Assembly: GCA_964645415.1 (NCBI GenBank)
Contig: CAZXZL010000005.1
Location: forward strand, 1 to 35,501
DNA from: an uncultured Methanosarcinales archaeon
GTDB taxonomy: Archaea > Nanobdellota > Nanobdellia > Woesearchaeales > CAZXZL01
Length of the DNA: 35,501 nucleotides
Direction: 5' to 3'
Shown one piece after another: positions 2,866 through 24,487 of this stretch (position 1 is the stretch's first letter; every line of letters begins with the position of its first letter). The notes beneath the pieces were generated by a model. The model was not told the DNA's origin, did no database searches, and worked only from the letters and a program-made list of their open reading frames with translations. The position numbers were made by a program, and so were the translations under genes.

Positions 2866-3576
2866 ATGAAAACTATTGAAAATTATAATGAAATTAAACC
2901 TGCAGGAAATACGAAAGTTGCTAATGAATATAAAAATTTAGATGAATTAAGATCTCATCTTTATGACTTATCTTCTGATTTAGAGAATGAATTAAAAGAT
3001 AAAAAAACAATTTATGATAATAAAAGGATTGAAGCTTTAAGAAAACCATTTAAACTTGAGTTAATGAATATTATTTTAACAGAAGATTATGATTTATCTA
3101 AAAAAGATGATGTTGAAAAACACGTAATTTGTTATAATCAAATACCTAGATTAGACTCAGGTGATAGTTATGATTCTTTATTTGATATTTTAAAAAATGA
3201 TTTAGATAGATATATCAAAGATGATATTAAAGAAAAATATCATTATCTAAAAAGTGATCTAAAAGAGAATTATGATTTAAAGTTAAATGATGATTCTATT
3301 TTTTACTTTCTAAATGTTAAATCTAATGATGTAGAAAAAAAGAGTTATGATAGAAAAGGAGAAGAATTTATTGAAAGATGGGGACTTCCAGTATCAATAA
3401 ATGGAAATAATACTAAATTTGATAGGTTTTATATCGTTGATGAAGGATTTAAAATTATTTATGATAAAAACAATCTACATACATTTAGAGGATATTCAAA
3501 AGAATGTTTAGAGGATTTCATCAAAAATGGAAAAGATTTAAAAATTGATTCTTGTAAATATAATATCAAAAATTAA
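2866..3576 (+). CDS. Family-P paralog 1 (unknown function)
   Basis: It shares with the five other ORFs the N-terminal G-x-(N/D)-T...L-x-E-(I/L)-x-x-(Y/H)-L-x-x-(I/L)-S-x-x-L-E block, the K-R-I-x-x-L-(K/R)-K-P block, and the C-terminal GLPV...FY(I/L)...G.K(I)..D... block. The SD ttaaggtgat precedes the ATG. Confidence 0.8.
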   Translation: MKTIENYNEIKPAGNTKVANEYKNLDELRSHLYDLSSDLENELKDKKTIYDNKRIEALRKPFKLELMNIILTEDYDLSKKDDVEKHVICYNQIPRLDSGDSYDSLFDILKNDLDRYIKDDIKEKYHYLKSDLKENYDLKLNDDSIFYFLNVKSNDVEKKSYDRKGEEFIERWGLPVSINGNNTKFDRFYIVDEGFKIIYDKNNLHTFRGYSKECLEDFIKNGKDLKIDSCKYNIKN

Positions 3577-4392: not shown

Positions 4393-5124
4393 ATGAAGTT
4401 ATACAAAGATATTTATGGTTTAGAACCTGGTTCAAATACTTTTATCTGTGGTGAATTCGATTCAATAAATATGATTAAAGATTATCTTGATCAAATATCA
4501 TTTAAATTAGAAAATGTATTAGGTAATAACCTTTCTAACTATGATAGAAAAAGAATAAATTTCATGAAAAAACCATTTCATAAAGACTTATATCAAATAA
4601 TTCGTGATGAAAAGATTTATGAAAATGAAGATGAAGTGAGAATAGATAGATATTCAAATATTATTTTAAATCAAGAAAAATATGATGAGTTATTTGAACG
4701 TTTAAACTCATCTTTAGATGAAAAAATTAAAGAAAAAGTTTTTGAAAGATATAATGAAATTAATGATTCAATAAAAAATAATTACTCTTTTAAAATAGAT
4801 GAAGATAATATTTATTATAAATTAAAAACTCATTTAAATAGTAGTTCATATTATCTAAAAGAATCATATTTTGAAGATTATGCATTACCAGTTAATTTAG
4901 ATTCTAATAATTTGAAAAAATTTTATTTAAATCCAAAAGGTAATAAGTATTTACATGATCAATCAGGTTCAATATTATTTAAAAATAAATCAGTTGATGG
5001 TTTAAAGGATTTAATGAAGAATGGAACAAAAATAAAAGATATTTCTTTAAAAAGTAGTATTGTTCCAGAAGTAACTCTTAAATCTAATAAGTATAGTTCT
5101 ATATATGATTATGAATTACTTTAA
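4393..5124 (+). CDS. Family-P paralog 2 (unknown function)
   Basis: The blocks GSNTFICGEFDSINMIKDYLDQISFKLE, YDRKRINFMKKP and LPVNLDSNNLKKFYLNPKGNKYLHDQSGSILFKNKSVDGLKDLMKNGTKI align with paralog 3 at about 50% identity in the C-terminal block. Confidence 0.8.
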   Translation: MKLYKDIYGLEPGSNTFICGEFDSINMIKDYLDQISFKLENVLGNNLSNYDRKRINFMKKPFHKDLYQIIRDEKIYENEDEVRIDRYSNIILNQEKYDELFERLNSSLDEKIKEKVFERYNEINDSIKNNYSFKIDEDNIYYKLKTHLNSSSYYLKESYFEDYALPVNLDSNNLKKFYLNPKGNKYLHDQSGSILFKNKSVDGLKDLMKNGTKIKDISLKSSIVPEVTLKSNKYSSIYDYELL

Positions 5125-6653: not shown

Positions 6654-6689
6654 TAACAAATACCATAGTCAAATAATAAGTTGATAAAC

Positions 6690-7394
6690 ATGGAAATGTT
6701 AAAAGGAAAATACGGATTTTATTATGGTGGTGACACTTTTTTAAGAGGTAAATTTTCTAATTTAAATGAAATTAAAGATTATTTAGATCATGTTTCAACA
6801 GACCTTAAAAAAAGTGACATGATTATTAATTTATCTGAAAATTATGATGATTTGTTTAGTAGCTTAAAAAAACCTCTCTTAAAGAAAATATTTCGTAACT
6901 CTGATAAATTTCTGAATAGTTTCTTTGAAAATTCATTTGATGATGTTGAAACTTTTTTAATCTCAGAAGAAGATTATGATTTACTTTATAAAAACACTAG
7001 TCAAAATTTATATGATAAAGTTTATAATGATATTAAATCCCATTATGATAAAATTAATGATAAACTAAAAAAAGAGTATTCAATGATTTTAAATGATGAT
7101 GAAATTTATTACTCTTTTGATATTAAATTTAATGATTATTCAGATATTTCCTTTAAAGAAAGATTAGGTTTTCCAGTTCTTTTAAACTCTATTGATTATG
7201 ATGAATTTTATCTTATTGAAAAAGGAGATAAAATTGTTCATGATGATAATGGTTCTATCTTATTTAAAGATAAAACAACAAGTGGTTTAGAAGATTTAAT
7301 TAAATTTGGTTCTAAAATAAGTAAGATTAACTCAAAAAAAGATAATCATTTGTCTAAAGAATATGTTGAAGGTATTGATTATATCTCAATCTGA
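6690..7394 (+). CDS. Family-P paralog 3 (unknown function)
   Basis: It contains GGDTFLRGKFSNLNEIKDYLDHVSTDLK, SLKKP and GFPVLLNSIDYDEFYLIEKGDKIVHDDNGSILFKDKTTSGLEDLIKFGSKI. The track starts at TTG 6681. ATG 6690 or 6696 is more likely. Confidence 0.8.
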   Translation: MEMLKGKYGFYYGGDTFLRGKFSNLNEIKDYLDHVSTDLKKSDMIINLSENYDDLFSSLKKPLLKKIFRNSDKFLNSFFENSFDDVETFLISEEDYDLLYKNTSQNLYDKVYNDIKSHYDKINDKLKKEYSMILNDDEIYYSFDIKFNDYSDISFKERLGFPVLLNSIDYDEFYLIEKGDKIVHDDNGSILFKDKTTSGLEDLIKFGSKISKINSKKDNHLSKEYVEGIDYISI

Positions 7395-9158: not shown

Positions 9159-9827
9159 GTGATTAAGCTGAAAAAAATTAAAGAAAAGATAAATCCTGTT
9201 AATAATGGTTCTACTTTTATTTCTGGTATTTACAATGATTTAAATGAATTCTCTTCATATTTGAATGATATCTCTTCTAAAATAGAAGATAAAAATAATG
9301 TTAAATATCCTAATTATAACAAAAAAAGAGTAAGTAAATTAAAAAAACCTTCATTAAATAATATTATTAATTATTCAAAAAATGAAGAAAATATTGATTC
9401 GTTAGAAGAAATTTTAGATGAAAAAAAGTCTGATGAGTTTATGAGTAATCTTAGAAAAAGAGTTAAAGAGGAATTTAACTTGATTTCTGAAATTATTAAA
9501 AAAGATTACTTAATTTCCTTAAATCAGGATAATTTTTATGCATCAGTTGATATTATATATAATGATTTATATTTTGAAAATATTCGATCTATTGAAAATT
9601 ATGGTCTTTTATTAGATTTTAAAAGTAGTGATAATATTGATAAACTTATACTTTTAGAAAATGGGAATAAAAAAGTTTACAAAGATAATTATTCAATTGT
9701 TTTTAAAAATAAAACTGATTTAGGTTTAATTGATTTAATGGAAAAAGGTATTTGGATTGAAGATGAAACTTCAGAAGAAGATAATAATTCAAAGTATAGA
9801 CTTAAAAAAGATTATTCTTTAAGGTAG
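9159..9827 (+). CDS. Family-P paralog 4 (unknown function)
   Basis: It contains NNGSTFISGIYNDLNEFSSYLNDISSKIE, YNKKRVSKLKKP and LILLENGNKKVYKDNYSIVFKNKTDLGLIDLMEKGIWI. The start is uncertain because GTG 9159 lies inside an aaggtgat SD-like string. Confidence 0.75.
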   Translation: MIKLKKIKEKINPVNNGSTFISGIYNDLNEFSSYLNDISSKIEDKNNVKYPNYNKKRVSKLKKPSLNNIINYSKNEENIDSLEEILDEKKSDEFMSNLRKRVKEEFNLISEIIKKDYLISLNQDNFYASVDIIYNDLYFENIRSIENYGLLLDFKSSDNIDKLILLENGNKKVYKDNYSIVFKNKTDLGLIDLMEKGIWIEDETSEEDNNSKYRLKKDYSLR

Positions 9828-10404: not shown

Positions 10405-11016
10405 ATGAGATTAAAAAATAACTATTGTAATTTGGAAGATATCTCTGAGATCTTTGTTTCAGGAATATTCAAAGATTTTAGTGAGATAAATAATTTTCTT
10501 GAAAGTTATGTGAAAAAAATAGAATCAAAAGATAAAAGTAATTATTTAAATGAAGATGATAATTTTAAATTATTAAAAAAAACTTCTTTTTCAATAGATG
10601 ACTTAGTTTCTTTAAATTATAGTTTTAATTTAATTGATGATGATTTAATTAATAATTATAATTTATCAAAAGATATTTCAAATTTATATTACTCTTTTTA
10701 TTTTTACAAAAATAATGATTCCCATTTAGTTGGTACAAAATATGATGAAAGAATAGGTATGAAAATTATCGTTGGTAAGGGTTACATAAATGAATTTTAT
10801 ATTGATAATTATCGAAACTTTATTCTTGATAAAAATGGTAAACAACTTGTTTTTAAAAACAATTCAAAAGAAGCTTTAGAAGATATTATTAACTTTGGAT
10901 TTGATGTTAAAAATAAAGTATCTTTTTTGGGTGATATTATTCCAAAAGAAAAATATAATTATTATGAAGATTACTTTATTCTTAATTGTAAAAGAGAAAA
11001 TATTAAACTAATCTAA
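10405..11016 (+). CDS. Family-P paralog 6 (divergent, 203 aa)
   Basis: It contains IFVSGIFKDFSEINNFLESYVKKIE, FKLLKKTS and FYIDNYRNFILDKNGKQLVFKNNSKEALEDIINFGFDV. It starts 2 nt after the stop of paralog 5. Confidence 0.7.
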   Translation: MRLKNNYCNLEDISEIFVSGIFKDFSEINNFLESYVKKIESKDKSNYLNEDDNFKLLKKTSFSIDDLVSLNYSFNLIDDDLINNYNLSKDISNLYYSFYFYKNNDSHLVGTKYDERIGMKIIVGKGYINEFYIDNYRNFILDKNGKQLVFKNNSKEALEDIINFGFDVKNKVSFLGDIIPKEKYNYYEDYFILNCKRENIKLI

Positions 11017-16132: not shown

Positions 16133-16678
16133 TTACCAAGGACTATCCTGCATTTTAAAAAAATAACCAATATAATTTGCTAAAATATGTAAAAAAGGAC
16201 TAATAAAAATAATCAAAGCCCAATATAAGATGTTTGGTAAAAATACATAAGAAAAAATCATTGAACCAATAACAAAATCTATTTGATCAAAAGGAAAAAA
16301 TCTTTCTCCTGATTTCATATCTAACCTTCTCTTAAAAAAACTTTCAATTAAATCTCCAAACATAGCTCCAAAACCTAAAGAAAATCCTAATAAGATAATA
16401 CTTACACTTTGATAACTAATAATAGAAATTGAATTAAAAAAACTAAGATTATACAATAAATATTGTAAAAAAACAGTTATTATTCCAAAAACTGTTCCAA
16501 AAAAAATTCCTCTAACAGTTTTAGTTTTACCAAACAAATAATTTCCTTTCCATTTAATTCCAAAATCAATAGGAAAAGATAAAAAATCAACCTTTTTTAC
16601 TAAAACAGGAGTCATATTTGAAATGTAGATTGGAAGAGAAAAATATATTAATTGTAAAAACAGATTAATAATTTCCAT
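16133..16678 (-). CDS. carS: CDP-archaeol synthase (CDP-2,3-bis-O-geranylgeranyl-sn-glycerol synthase, DUF46 family)
   Basis: It is a 181-aa polytopic membrane protein containing LPIYISNMTPVL, FGKTKTVRG, GAMFGDLIESFFKRRL and PFDQIDF, which is the CarS pattern. Confidence 0.8.
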   Translation of the reverse strand: MEIINLFLQLIYFSLPIYISNMTPVLVKKVDFLSFPIDFGIKWKGNYLFGKTKTVRGIFFGTVFGIITVFLQYLLYNLSFFNSISIISYQSVSIILLGFSLGFGAMFGDLIESFFKRRLDMKSGERFFPFDQIDFVIGSMIFSYVFLPNILYWALIIFISPFLHILANYIGYFFKMQDSPW

Positions 16679-16801: not shown

Positions 16802-17782
16802 ATGGAAAAGTATAAAATTTCTGAAAAAGGAAAAAAATACTTAAAGAAAGCTGCAGCATTCGGTGTTGGAGCTGCTTTAATTGCAAGTAGTTATGTTGGT
16901 GGAGTTTTAGCTAATGATGATATTGAAAAACAAGTTAATGAAGAATTAAACAATGAAACAAAAATTACTCAAGAAGTAGATCATGATTTTGATTTCAAGT
17001 TTGATTATAATAGAGTATCTCATGATGACTTTAGAGAGATTTATGATACAACAGGAGAAGGAGTTGATTTTAAATATGATTCATCTAATAAATTTGAAAT
17101 TGATACTAACATCGGCTTTAAAGATAGTGGATTAATTATTGGTGGTAATTATAGTAATAAATCTTTTTCAGGAGATATGATTTATGGAGAAGATAAAAAT
17201 GTTGGTGATTCAAGTAAAAAAGCTTCAATAATACTTGGAAGGTTAGGATATAATATAGATGAAGATACAATTATTCATACAGGTTATGGAAGTATTAGTG
17301 GAGAAAGAATAGCTAATTTTATCGATGATGATAGAGATTATGGTACTGATTTTAATGATTCTATAGTTGAAATTGGATTAAATCATAGTGGTAAATCTGA
17401 TGAGAATAAAATCAACCTTGAATTTATCTTAGATCGTGCAATAAATGATAATAATACAGGAATTAGAGGAAATGTTGATATAGAATCTAATGGAAATAGG
17501 TTTGGAGTTAATTTAGATAATTCTGCAAAATCTGAATACTTAGTTGACCGTTTAATTGATTTTTATGGATTAAGATCAATAAATGTTAATGATGAAAGTA
17601 GTATAAAAAATTCAGAAATAGGATTAAGTTACCAAAATTCATTAGAAGAAGGAATTGATAACATGATAGGATTGATTGGAAGTTTAGAAACAGAAGAAGG
17701 ACTAAATATTGATTTAAGATTAAAAAGGTCTCTAAATTCTGATACAAGTGGATTAAATATTAGTTTTGAATATGATTATTAA
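16802..17782 (+). CDS. Secreted beta-strand-rich (porin-like) protein, family B member 1
   Basis: There is an N-terminal signal/anchor, KKAAAFGVGAALIASSYVGGVLAND. About 260 aa then show alternating hydrophobic/polar strands (FEIDTNIGF, GLIIGGNYS, ASIILGRLGYNI, SIVEIGLNH, KINLEFILD, NRFGVNLDN, SEIGLSYQN, LNIDLRLKR). It ends in GLNISFEYDY, with aromatic or hydrophobic residues at positions -1, -3, -5, -7 and -9. It is homologous to the C-terminal domain of the 19216 gene. The track start 16793 is a GTG inside the SD. Confidence 0.75.
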   Translation: MEKYKISEKGKKYLKKAAAFGVGAALIASSYVGGVLANDDIEKQVNEELNNETKITQEVDHDFDFKFDYNRVSHDDFREIYDTTGEGVDFKYDSSNKFEIDTNIGFKDSGLIIGGNYSNKSFSGDMIYGEDKNVGDSSKKASIILGRLGYNIDEDTIIHTGYGSISGERIANFIDDDRDYGTDFNDSIVEIGLNHSGKSDENKINLEFILDRAINDNNTGIRGNVDIESNGNRFGVNLDNSAKSEYLVDRLIDFYGLRSINVNDESSIKNSEIGLSYQNSLEEGIDNMIGLIGSLETEEGLNIDLRLKRSLNSDTSGLNISFEYDY

Positions 17783-17846: not shown

Positions 17847-17889
17847 TTACTAACTACTACCATTTAAGGGAAAAAATTAGGTGGTTCTA

Positions 17890-19023
<1,134 letters not shown>

Positions 19024-19215: not shown

Positions 19216-20898
19216 ATGTATTTAAAAAATAAAGTTAATAAAATTAAAGAAAAAGGTAAAGATTATATGAAGAAAGCAGGTTATGGTATTGGTGCTTTAG
19301 CTATAGCAGCTTCATTAATGACTGGTAGTGCTGATGCTAGCAACATCAATGATGATTATCAAAATGAAGTTTTAAATGAGATGAATAATCAAAGTGTTCT
19401 TGAGTTAAGTTATGATAGTTTAGATTTAGAAGATAGAGATAATCTTGAAGACGAAATTAATAATGAAAGTAATAGCTATTCTTATAAAGAATCATTAATT
19501 TTAGATGATTTAAGATCAGATAATCTTTCTGCTATTGAACAATATGAAAGTATTGATAAATGGTTAGATGATATGTATCGTGGAAATTTAAAACCAGCAC
19601 ATTATGAACAAGTTATTGGTAATGAAACATGGATAAAACAATTATCAATTATTGATGGTGATGATGTTAGTTATGATGAAATGAAAGATACTCTTCAAAG
19701 TAAATACGATAGAGCATTAAGAAGAGAAAGAAGAGAGAGAGATTTAGATCGAGATGAAAGAGATAGTCCTGAAGTAACAAAATGGAGAGATCTAGATACA
19801 GACGAAATTTTAGAAAGATTAGATGAACTAGATACTGATGAAGATTTAGAAGAAATTGTAGATGATGAAAAAATCGAAAAACCTACACCAGATAAAGTAT
19901 ATGAACCTGACTTAGATGAAGAAAAAGAAGATTATAAAGTAGATGATACATATGAACCTACAGAAGATCCTGATGATGAATATGTTGTTGATACTACTGA
20001 TGATGAAATTGAAGATGATAATGATTATGATCCAATCGAAGAAGATCCTAGTGATTTAGAAGAAATTCTTGATGAAGAAAAAGAAGTAGAAAGAAAATCT
20101 GATATTAATAGAAATTATGTGAGTTTTGAATATGGTCAAAATCAAGGTGCAGGAACTAGCGATATTTATGATACAACTGGTGATGGTGTAACTTTTGAGT
20201 ATGATCAATCAAGTGAAAAAAATATTGAAGTTGGATTTGAAATTCCTGATACTGATTTTAATGTTAGTGGATCATATTTTAGTCGAGATTTAGAAGGAGA
20301 TATGGTTTATGGAATTGATACTGATAATGAGATGGAAGTAGGAGATGCGACTAAAAATCAAACATTACTTTCTCTTGGTGTTGGATATGATTTTGATGAA
20401 AACTTAAATACATCAATTGGAGTAAATAAATATGATGAAGAGAAAATAGCAAACTTTGAAGATGATGATAGAGATTATACATTTGAAGACTCAGATATCA
20501 TCCCAGAAGTAAATGTTAGACAAATTATAGATATTAATGACTCAGATGAACTTGCTTTAGAAGGAACTTTAGATTATTCAACCTCTGATTCAGAATTAGG
20601 TTTTAGATTAGGAGGAGATTATTATTTTGGAGATAATAGAGTTGGATTAGATTTTGATAACACTAAAGTATCAGATAGATTAAATGAAAGAAGTATGAGT
20701 ATTAGTGCTGATAGAACATTTAATGATGATTATAATGTTGGTGTTAGTTATAATAAGTCTTTAGAAGATGATGTTGGAGATAGTATTGGAATTAATGCAA
20801 GTTACACATATGAGGATTTAATGTTAAAATTTGGTGTAGATAGAGGTATTGATGATGATGAACTTGAATCTATACTTGGACTCGAATTAAGTTTTTAA
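19216..20898 (+). CDS. Secreted protein: signal peptide, N-terminal domain, highly acidic linker and C-terminal porin-like beta-rich domain (family B member 2)
   Basis: The signal KKAGYGIGALAIAASLMTGSADASN has an A-x-A-like site. The D/E-rich linker spans about aa 170-295. The C-terminal approx. 260 aa align with the 16802 gene (IYDTTGDGVTFEYD, GDMVYG, EKIANFEDDDRDY, GVSYNKSLEDD). It ends in ESILGLELSF, with a terminal Phe. Confidence 0.8.
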   Translation: MYLKNKVNKIKEKGKDYMKKAGYGIGALAIAASLMTGSADASNINDDYQNEVLNEMNNQSVLELSYDSLDLEDRDNLEDEINNESNSYSYKESLILDDLRSDNLSAIEQYESIDKWLDDMYRGNLKPAHYEQVIGNETWIKQLSIIDGDDVSYDEMKDTLQSKYDRALRRERRERDLDRDERDSPEVTKWRDLDTDEILERLDELDTDEDLEEIVDDEKIEKPTPDKVYEPDLDEEKEDYKVDDTYEPTEDPDDEYVVDTTDDEIEDDNDYDPIEEDPSDLEEILDEEKEVERKSDINRNYVSFEYGQNQGAGTSDIYDTTGDGVTFEYDQSSEKNIEVGFEIPDTDFNVSGSYFSRDLEGDMVYGIDTDNEMEVGDATKNQTLLSLGVGYDFDENLNTSIGVNKYDEEKIANFEDDDRDYTFEDSDIIPEVNVRQIIDINDSDELALEGTLDYSTSDSELGFRLGGDYYFGDNRVGLDFDNTKVSDRLNERSMSISADRTFNDDYNVGVSYNKSLEDDVGDSIGINASYTYEDLMLKFGVDRGIDDDELESILGLELSF

Positions 20899-20957
20899 CT
20901 TGTTTTAATTTTTTATAAAAAGTTTTATTTAGATGTGAGTATATAAATGTTAAAATG
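20806..20957 (+). repeat. Direct repeat copy 1 (last 30 codons of the 19216 gene, its 3' flank and the next start codon)
   Basis: It aligns by eye at about 90% identity with 23802-23957 (acatatgaggatttaatgttaaaatttggtgtagatagaggtattgat...ttaagtttttaacttgttttaattttttataaaaagtttta...). Confidence 0.9.
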
Positions 20958-22475: not shown

Positions 22476-23894
22476 ATGTCTTTAAAAAAGATAATAGATG
22501 ATACTGGTGTAAAAAAAGCTTATATTAGAAATGGTGATATTAAAAAAGAAAATAATATTTTTGATAAAATAAAAAATCTAAACCCATTTAATGATCAACC
22601 TGATATAATATATTCTAATGATCCTATTGAATCAAAAAATTCTATTAAAAGATATTATAATGATAATGAAGTTCACTATAAAAAAAAATCTACTCTTGAA
22701 GGTTTAATAGAATATAATGAATTATCATATGAAAATAAATCAGATAATAAATATGGTTATAAATTAAAAACTCAATTAGATTTACTTAAAAAGTATTATG
22801 AGAACTCAGTATCTGACATTGATTTATCAAACCATACTGATGTACTAAAGAGATTTTATCATCTTAATACATGGAAATCAAGAGTAGAATATATAAACCT
22901 TTTAAAAGATTCAATTCCTGAAAAATTAATTTCTGATATGTATGTGATTATTATGAGTAATAACTATGTTAAGAAAAAGATATTAGATAATGAAAGCATT
23001 TATTCAAATTTAGAAAATATAAAAGATTCAATTAATTTTTATCAACATGAATTAAAAAATTACAATACTTTAGAGATTGTTAATTATTTTAAAAATCGAA
23101 TAAAACATAATTCTAATGATTTAAATATTGATGACTTAGAACTTGAATATAAAAAAGGTTATAATTGGAGTAATTACTTTAAAGAGATAGATAATCTTGA
23201 AATTGATTTTAATGAAAAAAGATTACTTTTTTCAATTTTAGGAGATAATTCATCATTAGAGGGATATTATAATGGAATTAAAAAAAAAGTTGACCAAATA
23301 ATTTCTAAAGAAGGTTCTTTAGAGGAATTAATAGAAGAATTTGAATGTCTAAAGGAAAAAGAAGACATGTCCAATCTTATGGAAGATTACTTAAAAGATT
23401 TAATTAGTTATCATATAGATGGTTTTGATAATGAATATTCTGAAAATAAAGTTAAAAAATATTTTAGTAGTCTAAAAAATAATTTTAAAAATAAGTTAAA
23501 AAGTCTTTCTAATGTTAAAAAAATTAACCCTATAAAAAAACTAAAATCAATATATGATAATAAAAATAAAAGTAATTTATCAAAAAAATATAAATCTACT
23601 AACTCTATTGAAAATAATAATGAAAAAAATAACTTATCTAATAATTTATCAAGTGATAAAAGTAATATTCTAAATGAAGAAATTAAAAAAGATAATTATG
23701 TTTCAGATAAAATTTCTAAAGAGAAAAGTACTTCTTATAATTATGAATCTGAAAATATTTCATATAATGATGATAAATATAATAGTATTAATACAAATCA
23801 TACATATGAAGACTTAATGTTGAGATTTGGTATAGATAGAGGTATTGATTATGATGAACTTGAATCTATACTTGAACTTGAATTAAGTTTTTAA
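22476..23894 (+). CDS. Hypothetical K/N-rich protein (472 aa) with a grafted family-B C-terminal 30-aa strand module
   Basis: It has no signal peptide and the body is unlike family B. The last 30 aa, TYEDLMLRFGIDRGIDYDELESILELELSF, are near-identical to the C-terminus of the 19216 gene, and the nucleotide repeat continues past the stop. Confidence 0.7.
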   Translation: MSLKKIIDDTGVKKAYIRNGDIKKENNIFDKIKNLNPFNDQPDIIYSNDPIESKNSIKRYYNDNEVHYKKKSTLEGLIEYNELSYENKSDNKYGYKLKTQLDLLKKYYENSVSDIDLSNHTDVLKRFYHLNTWKSRVEYINLLKDSIPEKLISDMYVIIMSNNYVKKKILDNESIYSNLENIKDSINFYQHELKNYNTLEIVNYFKNRIKHNSNDLNIDDLELEYKKGYNWSNYFKEIDNLEIDFNEKRLLFSILGDNSSLEGYYNGIKKKVDQIISKEGSLEELIEEFECLKEKEDMSNLMEDYLKDLISYHIDGFDNEYSENKVKKYFSSLKNNFKNKLKSLSNVKKINPIKKLKSIYDNKNKSNLSKKYKSTNSIENNNEKNNLSNNLSSDKSNILNEEIKKDNYVSDKISKEKSTSYNYESENISYNDDKYNSINTNHTYEDLMLRFGIDRGIDYDELESILELELSF

Positions 23895-23957
23895 CTTATT
23901 TTAATTTTTTATAAAAAGTTTTACTTAATTTGAGTATACAAATTTTAAAATAAAATG
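23802..23957 (+). repeat. Direct repeat copy 2
   Basis: See copy 1. Stop codons are 2996 nt apart, and the following ATGs (20955 and 23955) are exactly 3000 nt apart. Confidence 0.9.
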
Positions 23958-24245
23958 AAAAAAGATTTATTTGAAAAGGAATTATTGAAATCTTCTGATC
24001 TTGAAAAAACAATTGAAGAGTATGATTTCTTAAAAATAAATGAAAATTCAGTATCAAATTTTTTAGTATTTGCTGATTATCTAAAAGATATTTATGCATT
24101 TGAAGAATATTTAAAAGATTCCAATAAATCTAATAAAAAAGTTTTTTTATATGGATCAATTATTGCTGCTAAATCATATTTAGTTTATAGACTTGCAAGA
24201 AATTATTTACCAATGATAAGAGATTATCTAACAAATTTATTATGA
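23955..24245 (+). CDS. Hypothetical 96-aa ORF behind the duplicated ydjM-type 5' flank
   Basis: Its ATG occupies the position equivalent to the ydjM-like ATG in repeat copy 1, so it inherits that upstream region. It has a C-terminal hydrophobic helix (VFLYGSIIAAKSYLVY). It overlaps the 3' end of the dph2 relic convergently by 22 nt. Coding status is uncertain. Confidence 0.35.
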   Translation: MKKDLFEKELLKSSDLEKTIEEYDFLKINENSVSNFLVFADYLKDIYAFEEYLKDSNKSNKKVFLYGSIIAAKSYLVYRLARNYLPMIRDYLTNLL

Positions 24246-24487
24246 CCAAAATGTAATATATGATCAAATTCTTTCATACCTAATGGAATATCACATGCAC
24301 CAAAACTAGGTCCTAAGTATAATGCATGATCAATATTATTTTCTTGAAATATATTAGAAATTTTTTTTGAATATGGTTTTAAACCATCTGGAAATTGTAG
24401 TAATACTTTTTTACCTTTATATTTACTTAAATAAATATCGAATTCTAATTTAAGTTCTTTAATCTTGATTTTCATTTTCTGTTTCAA
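24224..24487 (-). pseudogene. dph2: Truncated diphthamide synthase Dph2 (N-terminal approx. 85 aa only)
   Basis: KGKKVLLQFPDGLKPYSKKISNIFQENNIDHALYLGPSFGACDIPLGMKEFDHILHFGHNK matches the N-terminal region of archaeal Dph2 (approx. 330-340 aa), i.e. ..vliQ.PeGL...a..la..le......fl.g....GaCd........d.liHlGHs. The remaining approx. 250 aa are absent. All three minus-strand frames downstream hit stops within about 20 codons. Confidence 0.55.

Follow-up and report, generated by a model that had tools for sequence, protein, structure and literature searches.

OMP-type transmembrane beta-barrels are considered a hallmark of diderm bacteria and the organelles that descend from them, and to our knowledge archaea neither make nor assemble such proteins; we also know of no BAM machinery in archaea. 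A contig of an uncultured archaeon (CAZXZL010000005.1), of which we analysed a stretch of 35,501 nucleotides (the window), carries two paralogous genes, g16793 and g19216 (family B), with C-termini that resemble the signal recognised by that machinery. The first-pass annotation took this likeness, in two proteins only about 30% identical, as a sign that the last strand is under selection. The locus thereby raises the question of whether the two proteins are indeed beta-barrels, what their C-terminal pattern stands for, and in whose envelope they would reside. The features discussed are listed in Table 1.

Table 1. Positions of the genes, predicted domains, C-terminal strands and repeat copies discussed in the text (window coordinates).
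Feature	Position	Strand	Remarks
CDP-archaeol synthase (CarS)	16133..16678	-	Pfam PF01864, E 9e-36
Family-B paralog 1 (g16793)	16802..17782	+	326 aa from ATG 16802; 329 aa from GTG 16793
Paralog 1, predicted OMP-type beta-barrel domain	from ~16973	+	preceded by an N-terminal leader
Paralog 1, C-terminal strand TSGLNISFEYDY	17744..17779	+	predicted strand 280-288, pLDDT 75-82
SLT-type lytic transglycosylase	17881..19023	+	377-380 aa; Pfam PF01464
Family-B paralog 2 (g19216)	19216..20898	+	ORF, 560 aa; leader aa 1 to ~41, acidic extension aa ~42-295, predicted barrel domain aa 296-560
Paralog 2, predicted OMP-type beta-barrel domain	20101-20895	+	aa 296-560
Paralog 2, ILGLELSF	20872..20895	+	last eight residues; beta-signal-like motif, predicted last strand 259-264
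148-nt direct repeat, source copy	20784..20931	+	89% identity between copies
g22476, chimeric ORF	22476..23894	+	472 aa, Asn/Lys/Ser-rich; no N-terminal leader
148-nt direct repeat, second copy	23780..23927	+	last 36 codons and 3' flank of g22476

The two family-B genes are old paralogs encoded by a Woesearchaeota-like DPANN archaeon. The archaeal setting assumed at the outset was borne out by the genes for CarS, aRF1, an ATP-dependent DNA ligase, Kae1 and PyrI on the contig, and the closest CarS relatives are found in Woesearchaeota/Nanoarchaeia MAGs (44-49% identity). The estimated degree of divergence was likewise correct: g19216 and g16793 are 32% identical over 253 aa (E 7e-30), with 45% identity between their N-terminal leaders. 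Since leader and fold were kept while the paralogs diverged to this extent, a long residence is implied. In g19216 the stretch between leader and C-terminal domain is a very acidic, probably disordered extension; position 20122, at which the first-pass annotation started its feature, is codon 303, where the first strand predicted for the C-terminal domain lies. The pI of the g19216 product is 4.05, and the products of g16793, the SLT gene and g19216 are all acidic, against a proteome median pI of 9.06.

The two family-B genes flank the SLT gene and adjoin the gene for CDP-archaeol synthase. The product of the middle gene has a leader like those of the paralogs, a low-complexity stretch of poly-Asn and, at its C-terminus, an SLT domain, which was recognised by PF01464 when the C-terminal 207 aa were searched (33.3 bits vs a cut-off of 21.3) and in which the catalytic motifs IESTFD, GLMQVN and AYNRGP can be read; at full length the protein had no match to Pfam, presumably because of the Asn-rich region. 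The leaders follow the pattern KK-x-GxG, a hydrophobic stretch and [EQ][KN][EQ][VI]x[EN]E[LM]N, which occurs in these three proteins only among the window ORFs. They contain a class III (prepilin-type) motif, KKA/A or KKA/G, and also have long n-regions and AXA-like sites (VLA/ND, ADA/SN) after the hydrophobic stretch, and on these sequence features an ordinary Sec signal appears to fit better than a class III signal. The one SLT relative found, 52% identical to the product of the middle gene, is encoded in a Woesearchaeota MAG, near a contig end, with no barrel gene upstream or within the 558 bp of sequence downstream, which counts against the reading preferred below.

The C-termini are as first described. 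The g19216 product ends in ESILGLELSF, with Phe at -1 and Leu at -3, -5 and -7, and that of g16793 in GLNISFEYDY, with Tyr at -1 and -3, Phe at -5, Ile at -7 and Leu at -9. Among the 44 window ORFs of at least 80 aa, a terminal aromatic residue combined with hydrophobic residues in at least three of the four positions -3, -5, -7 and -9 was found only in g19216, g16793 and g22476, a chimeric ORF further downstream (see below). The published consensus of the BAM beta-signal is zeta-x-G-x-x-[Omega/Phi]-x-[Omega/Phi] (PMC10945584, PMC1634882). With Gly, Phi and the terminal aromatic in register, TSGLNISF of g16793 agrees with it at four of the four specified positions, but four residues short of the C-terminus, where EYDY forms an extension that keeps up the alternation; ILGLELSF of g19216 stands at the extreme C-terminus and agrees at three of four, the polar zeta being replaced by Ile. 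The comparison with the BAM signal thus holds in so far as both tails fit the consensus, but not for the terminal aromatic, which is not positionally conserved between the paralogs: in the pairwise alignment the terminal Phe of g19216 pairs with Phe -5 of g16793, and the conserved block is therefore G-L-x-[LI]-S-F.

The proposed selection acting on the last strand in particular found no support in the paralog alignment. The terminal 8-residue window is identical at 4 of 8 positions (domain mean 33%), and 54 of 271 windows are conserved equally or better; the best-conserved blocks are IANFxDDDRDY and IYDTTGxGVxF. Moreover, the aromatic and alternating-hydrophobic pattern recurs at three internal strand ends of g19216, and a regular expression for the beta-signal, which is a loose motif, gave 4-5 matches per domain vs 0.43 per 100 aa window-wide. 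Signal-like motifs on internal strands have also been described for OmpC. As far as the sequences inform us, the terminal pattern is one that the strands of this domain show in general. As the tails of g19216 and g16793 are homologous, they represent one event and its retention, not two independent occurrences.

With respect to the fold, we consider it likely that the C-terminal approximately 265 aa of both proteins form an OMP-type beta-barrel, distantly porin-like and with 14 strands predicted. The structure models were built on a 2-sequence alignment and are of moderate confidence. For the g19216 domain AF2 predicted an all-beta up-and-down meander of 14 long strands, with short turns alternating with longer loops (pLDDT 78.9, pTM 0.68), and for g16793 it also gave 14 long strands (mean pLDDT 71.3, pTM 0.58; only one of five models above 70). 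According to DSSP, both models have, besides these, an extra strand of 4-5 residues within the first loop. In both paralogs the tail lies in the last predicted strand of this meander, as the first-pass annotation had supposed, and the beta-signal-like C-terminus is most simply taken, on the basis of the models, as the last (seam) strand of the predicted barrel. The seam strands are modelled weakly, i.e. pLDDT ~50-63 in g19216, where they are the least confident part of the model (block means for the last strand of 52 for residues 251-260 and 63 for 261-265), and ~30-40 for the first strand of g16793 (its last strand stands at 75-82), so barrel closure is not established by the models.

Alternatively, the proteins may not be membrane barrels at all but secreted or surface-attached, highly acidic, beta-rich proteins such as adhesins or wall proteins, with a tail like that of any amphipathic final beta-strand and with the AF2 barrel and the Porin_4 match over-interpreted. 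The composition of the domain (25% Asp/Glu, GRAVY -0.6 to -0.7) is in line with this, as are the shallow alignment, the low confidence of four of the five g16793 models and the modest similarity to known barrels (TM-scores just 0.35-0.53, with large rmsd). Similarly, the Pfam Porin_4 match is borderline and confined to one paralog: the isolated g19216 domain scored 28.0 bits (E 2.5e-6), 1 bit over the threshold (GA 27), full-length g19216 scored 22.4 bits and thus fell below it, and g16793 had no Porin_4 match at E <=10 and no Pfam match at all. Nevertheless, we find this alternative unlikely. When both models were compared with the PDB using Foldseek, every match at E <=1e-3 was an outer membrane beta-barrel, with no soluble fold; these included PorV, OmpG and BamA. 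The weaker matches, FadL among them, were alike in kind, and porins were also matched by the g19216 model. The sequence-level matches were also to OMP families throughout (the weak NCBIfam matches being PopA, AcfA and CglE), and no OMP match, Porin_4 included, was obtained with ten reversed or shuffled g19216 controls, which rules out composition as the source of the Porin_4 match. Furthermore, the strands show dyad hydrophobic/polar alternation and aromatic ends, and 14 hairpin-linked strands with a one-sided hydrophobic face would form a barrel too wide to bury that face. Genuine OMPs are also hydrophilic and acidic overall. Against a viral fold library there was no match at E <=1e-3, and the named weak matches were mostly OMP-like.

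Several known barrels come close to the predicted domain. Among the 14-stranded monomeric outer membrane barrels (OmpG, FadL/TodX and PorV of the type 9 secretion system), strand number is the same as in g19216, and long and short connections alternate in the same way; PorV (6h3i_F, 8gl6_F) gave the two lowest Foldseek E-values for the g19216 model, and OmpG 2x9k, FadL 2r89 and TodX 3brz were also among its matches. However, the TM-scores are only 0.38-0.47, there is no sequence similarity, and unlike this group g19216 has no predicted N-terminal plug (hatch). The Gram-negative porins of Porin_4 (PF13609) are the sole curated family that was reached at threshold, by the isolated g19216 domain; the features in common are an all-beta meander, acidic character, strands with aromatic ends and Phe as the C-terminal residue. 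Classical porins, however, are trimers of 16 strands each in the outer membrane of bacteria, whereas here ~14 strands are predicted from an archaeal genome. In addition, PopA of Bdellovibrio (NF053618) gave a weak full-length match (18.5 bits vs a cut-off of 150, E 1.1e-3; domain residues 5-263 to profile positions 56-286), but PopA is a pentamer whose subunits have 16 strands and a helical plug, and nothing of this is predicted for the family-B barrels. The organism that makes this porin-like OMP lives on another cell, and PopA has been reported to enter the prey membrane, and a possible distant relative in the DPANN Altiarchaeales has been mentioned (PMC12228718).

Family B appears to be an orphan family. 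A word-indexed search of 5.8 billion proteins found no relative, and an exhaustive HMMER search of 1.84 billion representatives with a 2-sequence profile returned nothing beyond the paralogs themselves and one repeat protein, P0003, which is a spurious match; the 90% clusters that hold the paralogs are singletons. Two scans of JGI metagenomes yielded at most a spurious match to low-complexity sequence, IMG/VR and (by tblastn) phage records held no relative, a sequence profile search of the PDB gave nothing at E <=10, and among the ORFs of 30 CarS loci from related DPANN archaea nothing scored below E 0.2 against the family profile. As no further member was found, a homolog logo of the C-terminus cannot be built, and a family of two members in one organism provides neither covariation nor a phylogeny that would show a bacterial origin.

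If the archaeon's own envelope were the location of the proteins, no beta-barrel porin would have been known from an archaeal cell before them. They would then insert by themselves, without BAM, and be housed in a second membrane or an outer layer, and the last strand would be selected for closure or self-insertion. The barrels might conceivably insert themselves into an archaeal membrane. Points in favour of the archaeon's own envelope are that in vitro thin bilayers allow OMPs to fold spontaneously, that each of the two proteins has an export leader and a predicted barrel fold, that the G-L-x-[LI]-S-F block was kept despite the low overall identity, and that no Omp85/BamA or POTRA domain was detected in the window ORFs scanned and the Pfam annotations, which cover ~45 kb of the 75-kb contig. 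Still, we judge a residence in the archaeon's own envelope to be quite unlikely. Presence in one organism only, with the family missing from the related CarS loci and the protein representatives searched, is unexpected for a structural envelope component, and an open barrel would harm the only energised membrane. The conservation of the last strand is, as described above, not above background, and peptidoglycan, the target of the neighbouring SLT, is not made by archaea. It also counts against this location that, a preprint abstract names Ignicoccus hospitalis as the only archaeon in which an outer membrane is known (bioRxiv 10.64898/2026.09.08.750209).

That the cluster plays no role in the archaeon, being either a recent passenger of bacterial or mobile-element origin or a chimera of the assembly, is highly improbable, although OMP and SLT folds are bacterial hallmarks and a nearby 148-nt duplication with its chimeric ORF indicates local recombination, because the CarS-B1-SLT-B2 order is kept with 99.97% identity in a second, independent assembly from a different sample (which rules out a chimera), the GC content of the cluster (22-26%) does not stand out from the remainder of the window, neither phage records nor IMG/VR yielded a relative, and archaeal housekeeping genes lie on both sides.

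Our preferred reading is that the three genes constitute an envelope-interaction module of two exported barrel proteins and an SLT with a common leader. The tail pattern G-x-x-Phi-x-Omega would then meet the general needs of an OMP-type barrel, namely for residues that face the lipid, for an aromatic girdle and for a strand that pairs with strand 1, and would probably stem from a bacterial ancestor gene rather than from evolution toward an archaeal BAM. The adjacent peptidoglycan-cleaving SLT with its shared leader points to a bacterial envelope over archaeal self-insertion, and the likeliest use would be on a diderm bacterial partner, in which the SLT would open the peptidoglycan and the barrels would insert into the partner membrane, spontaneously or via the partner's own BAM, and act as a pore or anchor. 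For the reading as a whole, i.e. OMP-type barrels in a module with an SLT, a tail that is the seam strand, and a bacterial partner as the target, we see the case for and against as evenly balanced. Taken by itself, a host-directed function of the module is a tentative suggestion. A still more specific version, in which the barrels carry a retained beta-signal for assembly by the BAM of a diderm host in its outer membrane, or self-insert, with the SLT making the breach, so that OMPs transferred between domains build the pore or anchor of an archaeon-on-bacterium symbiosis, we regard as doubtful and improbable; BAM acts from the periplasmic side, and the route of an archaeal protein to it is thus a difficulty. 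Transfer of OMPs to a foreign membrane nonetheless has precedents, with Neisseria PorB reaching mitochondria and Bdellovibrio PopA the prey membrane (PMC12228718).

The SLT gene provides a further link to known systems. In the portion of the source at hand, extracellular SLT-domain proteins of Pacearchaeota/Woesearchaeota (fam00969) are proposed to target bacterial cell walls, and that portion makes no mention of OMP-type barrel genes beside fam00969 SLT genes (PMC8204110). The middle gene product is like the fam00969 proteins an exported SLT lytic transglycosylase and shares their archaeal clade, but has 377 aa, whereas these are up to 3,000 aa long. Should the preferred reading be correct, it would support the proposal that some Woesearchaeota/Pacearchaeota live on bacteria and not on archaea, which so far is based mainly on SLT domains, and with a long-resident pair of barrels whose leader is also that of an enzyme cleaving peptidoglycan, the evidence for bacterial hosts would be concrete and could be cloned. 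It would also offer a natural test of the role of the beta-signal where the producing cell has no BAM, i.e. intrinsic folding and closure vs recognition by a foreign BAM.

Finally, the tail of g19216 has a second copy in the window. The source copy of the 148-nt direct repeat takes in the final 36-37 codons of g19216 with the stop codon and runs into the intergenic region downstream; in a gapped alignment it reaches ~20950. The chimeric ORF g22476 resembles g19216 in its last 36 aa only. Its tail was rejected as independent conservation, the cause being a recent DNA duplication that runs past the stop codon, and the g22476 protein has neither leader nor barrel. The coding-tail copies differ at 14 nt, 10 of them in amino-acid-changing codons and four silent, and in the beta-signal-like motif of the g22476 copy the Gly has been changed to Glu.

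We report a three-gene module in a DPANN archaeon, two predicted OMP-type (bacterial outer-membrane protein) barrels and an SLT lytic transglycosylase, which is more interesting than the C-terminal tails of the barrel proteins themselves. The SLT domain scores 33.3 bits against PF01464 (cut-off 21.3) and has the motifs ES, GLMQVN and AYNRGP. The two family-B paralogs, B1 (g16793) and B2 (g19216), and the SLT protein have a common leader, KK-x(2-4)-G-x-G and a hydrophobic stretch followed 8-10 residues on by [EQ][KN][EQ][VI]x[EN]E[LM]N, that is present in no further window ORF and might act as a sorting or tethering signal specific to the lineage. Moreover, all three belong to the five most acidic proteins of the window (median pI 9.06); common leader and acidity therefore link the predicted barrels to the peptidoglycan-cleaving enzyme as a single exported set. 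Extracellular SLT proteins are known from Pacearchaeota/Woesearchaeota, with a proposed action on bacterial walls (PMC8204110). Our literature search yielded no description of OMP-type barrels from these lineages, the nearest mention being that of a possible distant relative of PopA in Altiarchaeales (PMC12228718).

Positions and characteristics of the module and its archaeal gene context
Feature	Position	Type or placement	Characteristics
CDP-archaeol synthase (CarS) gene		directly upstream of B1	archaeal
CDP-alcohol phosphatidyltransferase, aRF1, PyrB/PyrI, archaeal-type Hsp20 genes		elsewhere in the window	archaeal
B1 (g16793)	16793/16802-17782	ORF, 329/326 aa	C-terminus GLNISFEYDY
SLT gene	17881-19023	between the two barrel genes	leader, Asn-rich tract, C-terminal SLT lytic transglycosylase domain
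B2 (g19216)	19216-20898	ORF, 560 aa	C-terminus ESILGLELSF
Common leader	16844-16951 (B1), 17908-18018 (SLT), 19270-19386 (B2)		

At the N-terminus of both family-B proteins, a Lys-rich segment precedes a hydrophobic stretch of 17-22 residues, followed by an AXA-like site (VLA|ND, ADA|SN); we read this as a Sec-type leader. AF2 models built on a two-sequence alignment reached a mean pLDDT of 78.9 and a pTM of 0.68 for the B2 domain (aa 296-560; three of five models >70) and 71.3 and 0.58 for mature B1 (one of five >70), and both are all-beta meanders of 14 long strands. In the B2 model the odd connections (14, 7, 5, 4, 10, 7 and 9 residues) are longer than the even ones (5, 2, 4, 2, 3 and 2), which is the loop/turn alternation of classical OMPs. 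All Foldseek matches in the PDB at E <= 1e-3 were outer-membrane barrels, and weaker ones pointed to the same type of structure; among the matches are PorV, BamA, OmpG, Rhodobacter porin, FadL/TodX, TamA, autotransporter beta-domains and VDAC (TM-scores 0.35-0.53), while a viral structure library gave no significant match. The isolated B2 domain matched the Pfam family Porin_4 (28.0 bits, GA 27, E 2.5e-6) and, more weakly, DUF2490 and OMP_b-brl, with weak NCBIfam matches to PopA, AcfA-family OMP and CglE. No such OMP match was obtained with its control versions (one reversed, six globally and three locally shuffled), and B1 alone had no match in the same profile searches. The strands are hydrophobic on one side and have aromatic ends. 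Given the meanders, the Foldseek and profile matches and the strand composition, the C-terminal domains are quite probably OMP-type beta-barrels. Model confidence is lowest at the putative closing seam (pLDDT ~30-55 for the first strand in both, 52-63 and 75-82 for the last strand in B2 and B1, respectively). It is unlikely that the family represents a beta-rich surface protein residing outside a membrane.

The best-conserved family block, IANFxDDDRDY (17303-17341 in B1, 20440-20478 in B2), lies where predicted strand 5 ends and in the third long loop after it, whose position matches that of the constriction loop L3 in classical porins; another block, IYDTTGxGVxFxYD, surrounds the first hairpin. 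The leader and barrel of B2 are separated by ~255 extremely Asp/Glu-rich residues (19339-20100) that are missing from B1 and gave no family match at E <= 10.

The first-pass annotation had pointed to an OMP-style C-terminal beta-signal on both paralogs, which are 32% identical over 253 aa (BLASTP, E 7e-30) and 45% identical over the N-terminal ~50 aa. Its description of the tails is accurate, since the ORFs end as described and, of the 44 ORFs in the window with 80 aa or more, B1, B2 and a third ORF (22476-23894) are the only ones to pair a terminal aromatic with three or more of four hydrophobics at -3/-5/-7/-9. In the pairwise alignment the terminal Phe of B2 is opposite the Phe at -5 of B1; the common block is G-L-x-[LI]-S-F, which B1 extends by EYDY. 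Relative to the consensus signal of the BAM insertion machinery, zeta-x-G-x-x-[Omega/Phi]-x-[Omega/Phi] (PMC10945584), TSGLNISF of B1 agrees at each of the four specified positions, though EYDY comes after it; ILGLELSF of B2 agrees at three of four and forms the true C-terminus.

Its interpretation was supported in part, and several points count against a special status of the C-terminal signal. The terminal eight-residue window has four identities between the paralogs, a value equalled or exceeded in 54 of 271 windows, and the conservation hot spots are IANFxDDDRDY and IYDTTGxGVxF. A stricter pattern (aromatic plus three hydrophobics) recurs at three further strand ends of B2, and the consensus expressed as a regular expression gives 4-5 matches per barrel domain compared with 0.43 per 100 aa window-wide. 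The beta-signal-like pattern characterises the barrel as a whole, in the manner of the internal signals known from OmpC (PMC10945584). Protein-database, metagenome and related-locus searches returned no homologs beyond these two proteins. For these reasons, selection on the last strand in particular is undemonstrated, and this strand is simply kept together with the rest of the fold. At the DNA level, 41 nt encoding the C-terminal NISFEYD of B1 (17734-17774) are 73% identical to those for YVSFEYG in the first strand of the B2 domain (20094-20134); this may be coincidence or a remnant of first/last-strand similarity.

The third ORF ends in ...YEDLMLRFGIDRGIDYDELESILELELSF and shares 78% identity with B2 over the final 36 aa; outside this tail it is unrelated to B2 and devoid of the leader. 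The tail lies in a 148-nt direct repeat (20784-20931 and 23780-23927, 89% identity) composed of the last 36 codons of B2, the stop codon and ~57 nt of downstream intergenic sequence, to about 20950/23950; the intergenic part includes the TATA-like TTTTTTATAAAAAG. Of the 14 nt differences in the coding part, ten fall in codons whose amino acid is altered, among them that of the consensus Gly, which becomes Glu. As judged from the repeat, a segment with the end of a gene and its 3' flank was recently duplicated and grafted onto an unrelated ORF; the tail was ruled out as a third independent signal because the repeat extends through the stop codon into intergenic DNA.

The export leaders, OMP-type fold, SLT domain, common leader, archaeal host genome and orphan status of the family are what the tools show or predict. 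Porin_4-level similarity suggests a probable origin of the barrels from a bacterial OMP gene, and from their 32% identity and ameliorated GC we infer that the two copies are long resident. The most likely role of the barrels would be a joint action with the SLT protein at a diderm bacterial partner's envelope. The terminal motif would then serve intrinsic folding and closure of the barrel; should the protein reach a periplasm, the BAM of the partner might recognise the motif as well. OMPs are known to enter foreign membranes, e.g. Neisseria PorB in mitochondria and Bdellovibrio PopA in the prey membrane (PMC12228718). An endogenous porin of an archaeal outer layer is improbable, somewhat more so than a non-membrane surface protein. 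The whole case consists of predictions for one orphan pair in one uncultured organism; what is new is a predicted OMP-like barrel in a non-bacterial host together with a new sequence family, which would surprise specialists and offers clonable candidates for DPANN-bacterium contact.

The window has a GC content of 19-26%, and beyond it the 75 kb source contig (ENA ERZ27266011) encodes an ATP-dependent DNA ligase and Kae1/TsaD. The nearest CarS relatives among GTDB species representatives are Woesearchaeota/Nanoarchaeia MAGs (44-49% identity), and on sequence grounds the source organism is a DPANN archaeon. A 9.1-kb contig of another sample (ERZ27265998) carries CarS, B1, the SLT gene and the start of B2 in the same order at 99.97% identity, which rules out an assembly artefact for the arrangement, and a foreign or artefactual origin of the cluster is very improbable. 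Across these 9.1 kb the sole difference between the two independent assemblies is one codon in the poly-Asn (AAT) tract of the SLT gene (18190-18260; 377 vs 376 aa).

Five co-oriented genes (2866-3576, 4393-5124, 6681-7394, 9159-9827 and 10405-11016) make up another paralog family; their products, of about 200-240 aa with 24-36% mutual identity, have neither a Pfam or NCBIfam match nor an export leader. Finally, an ORF of 83-87 aa on the reverse strand (24224-24487), overlapping the end of a Ham1-like gene, has a precomputed Pfam match to diphthamide synthase (PF01866); being far below normal Dph2 length, it may be a fragment.
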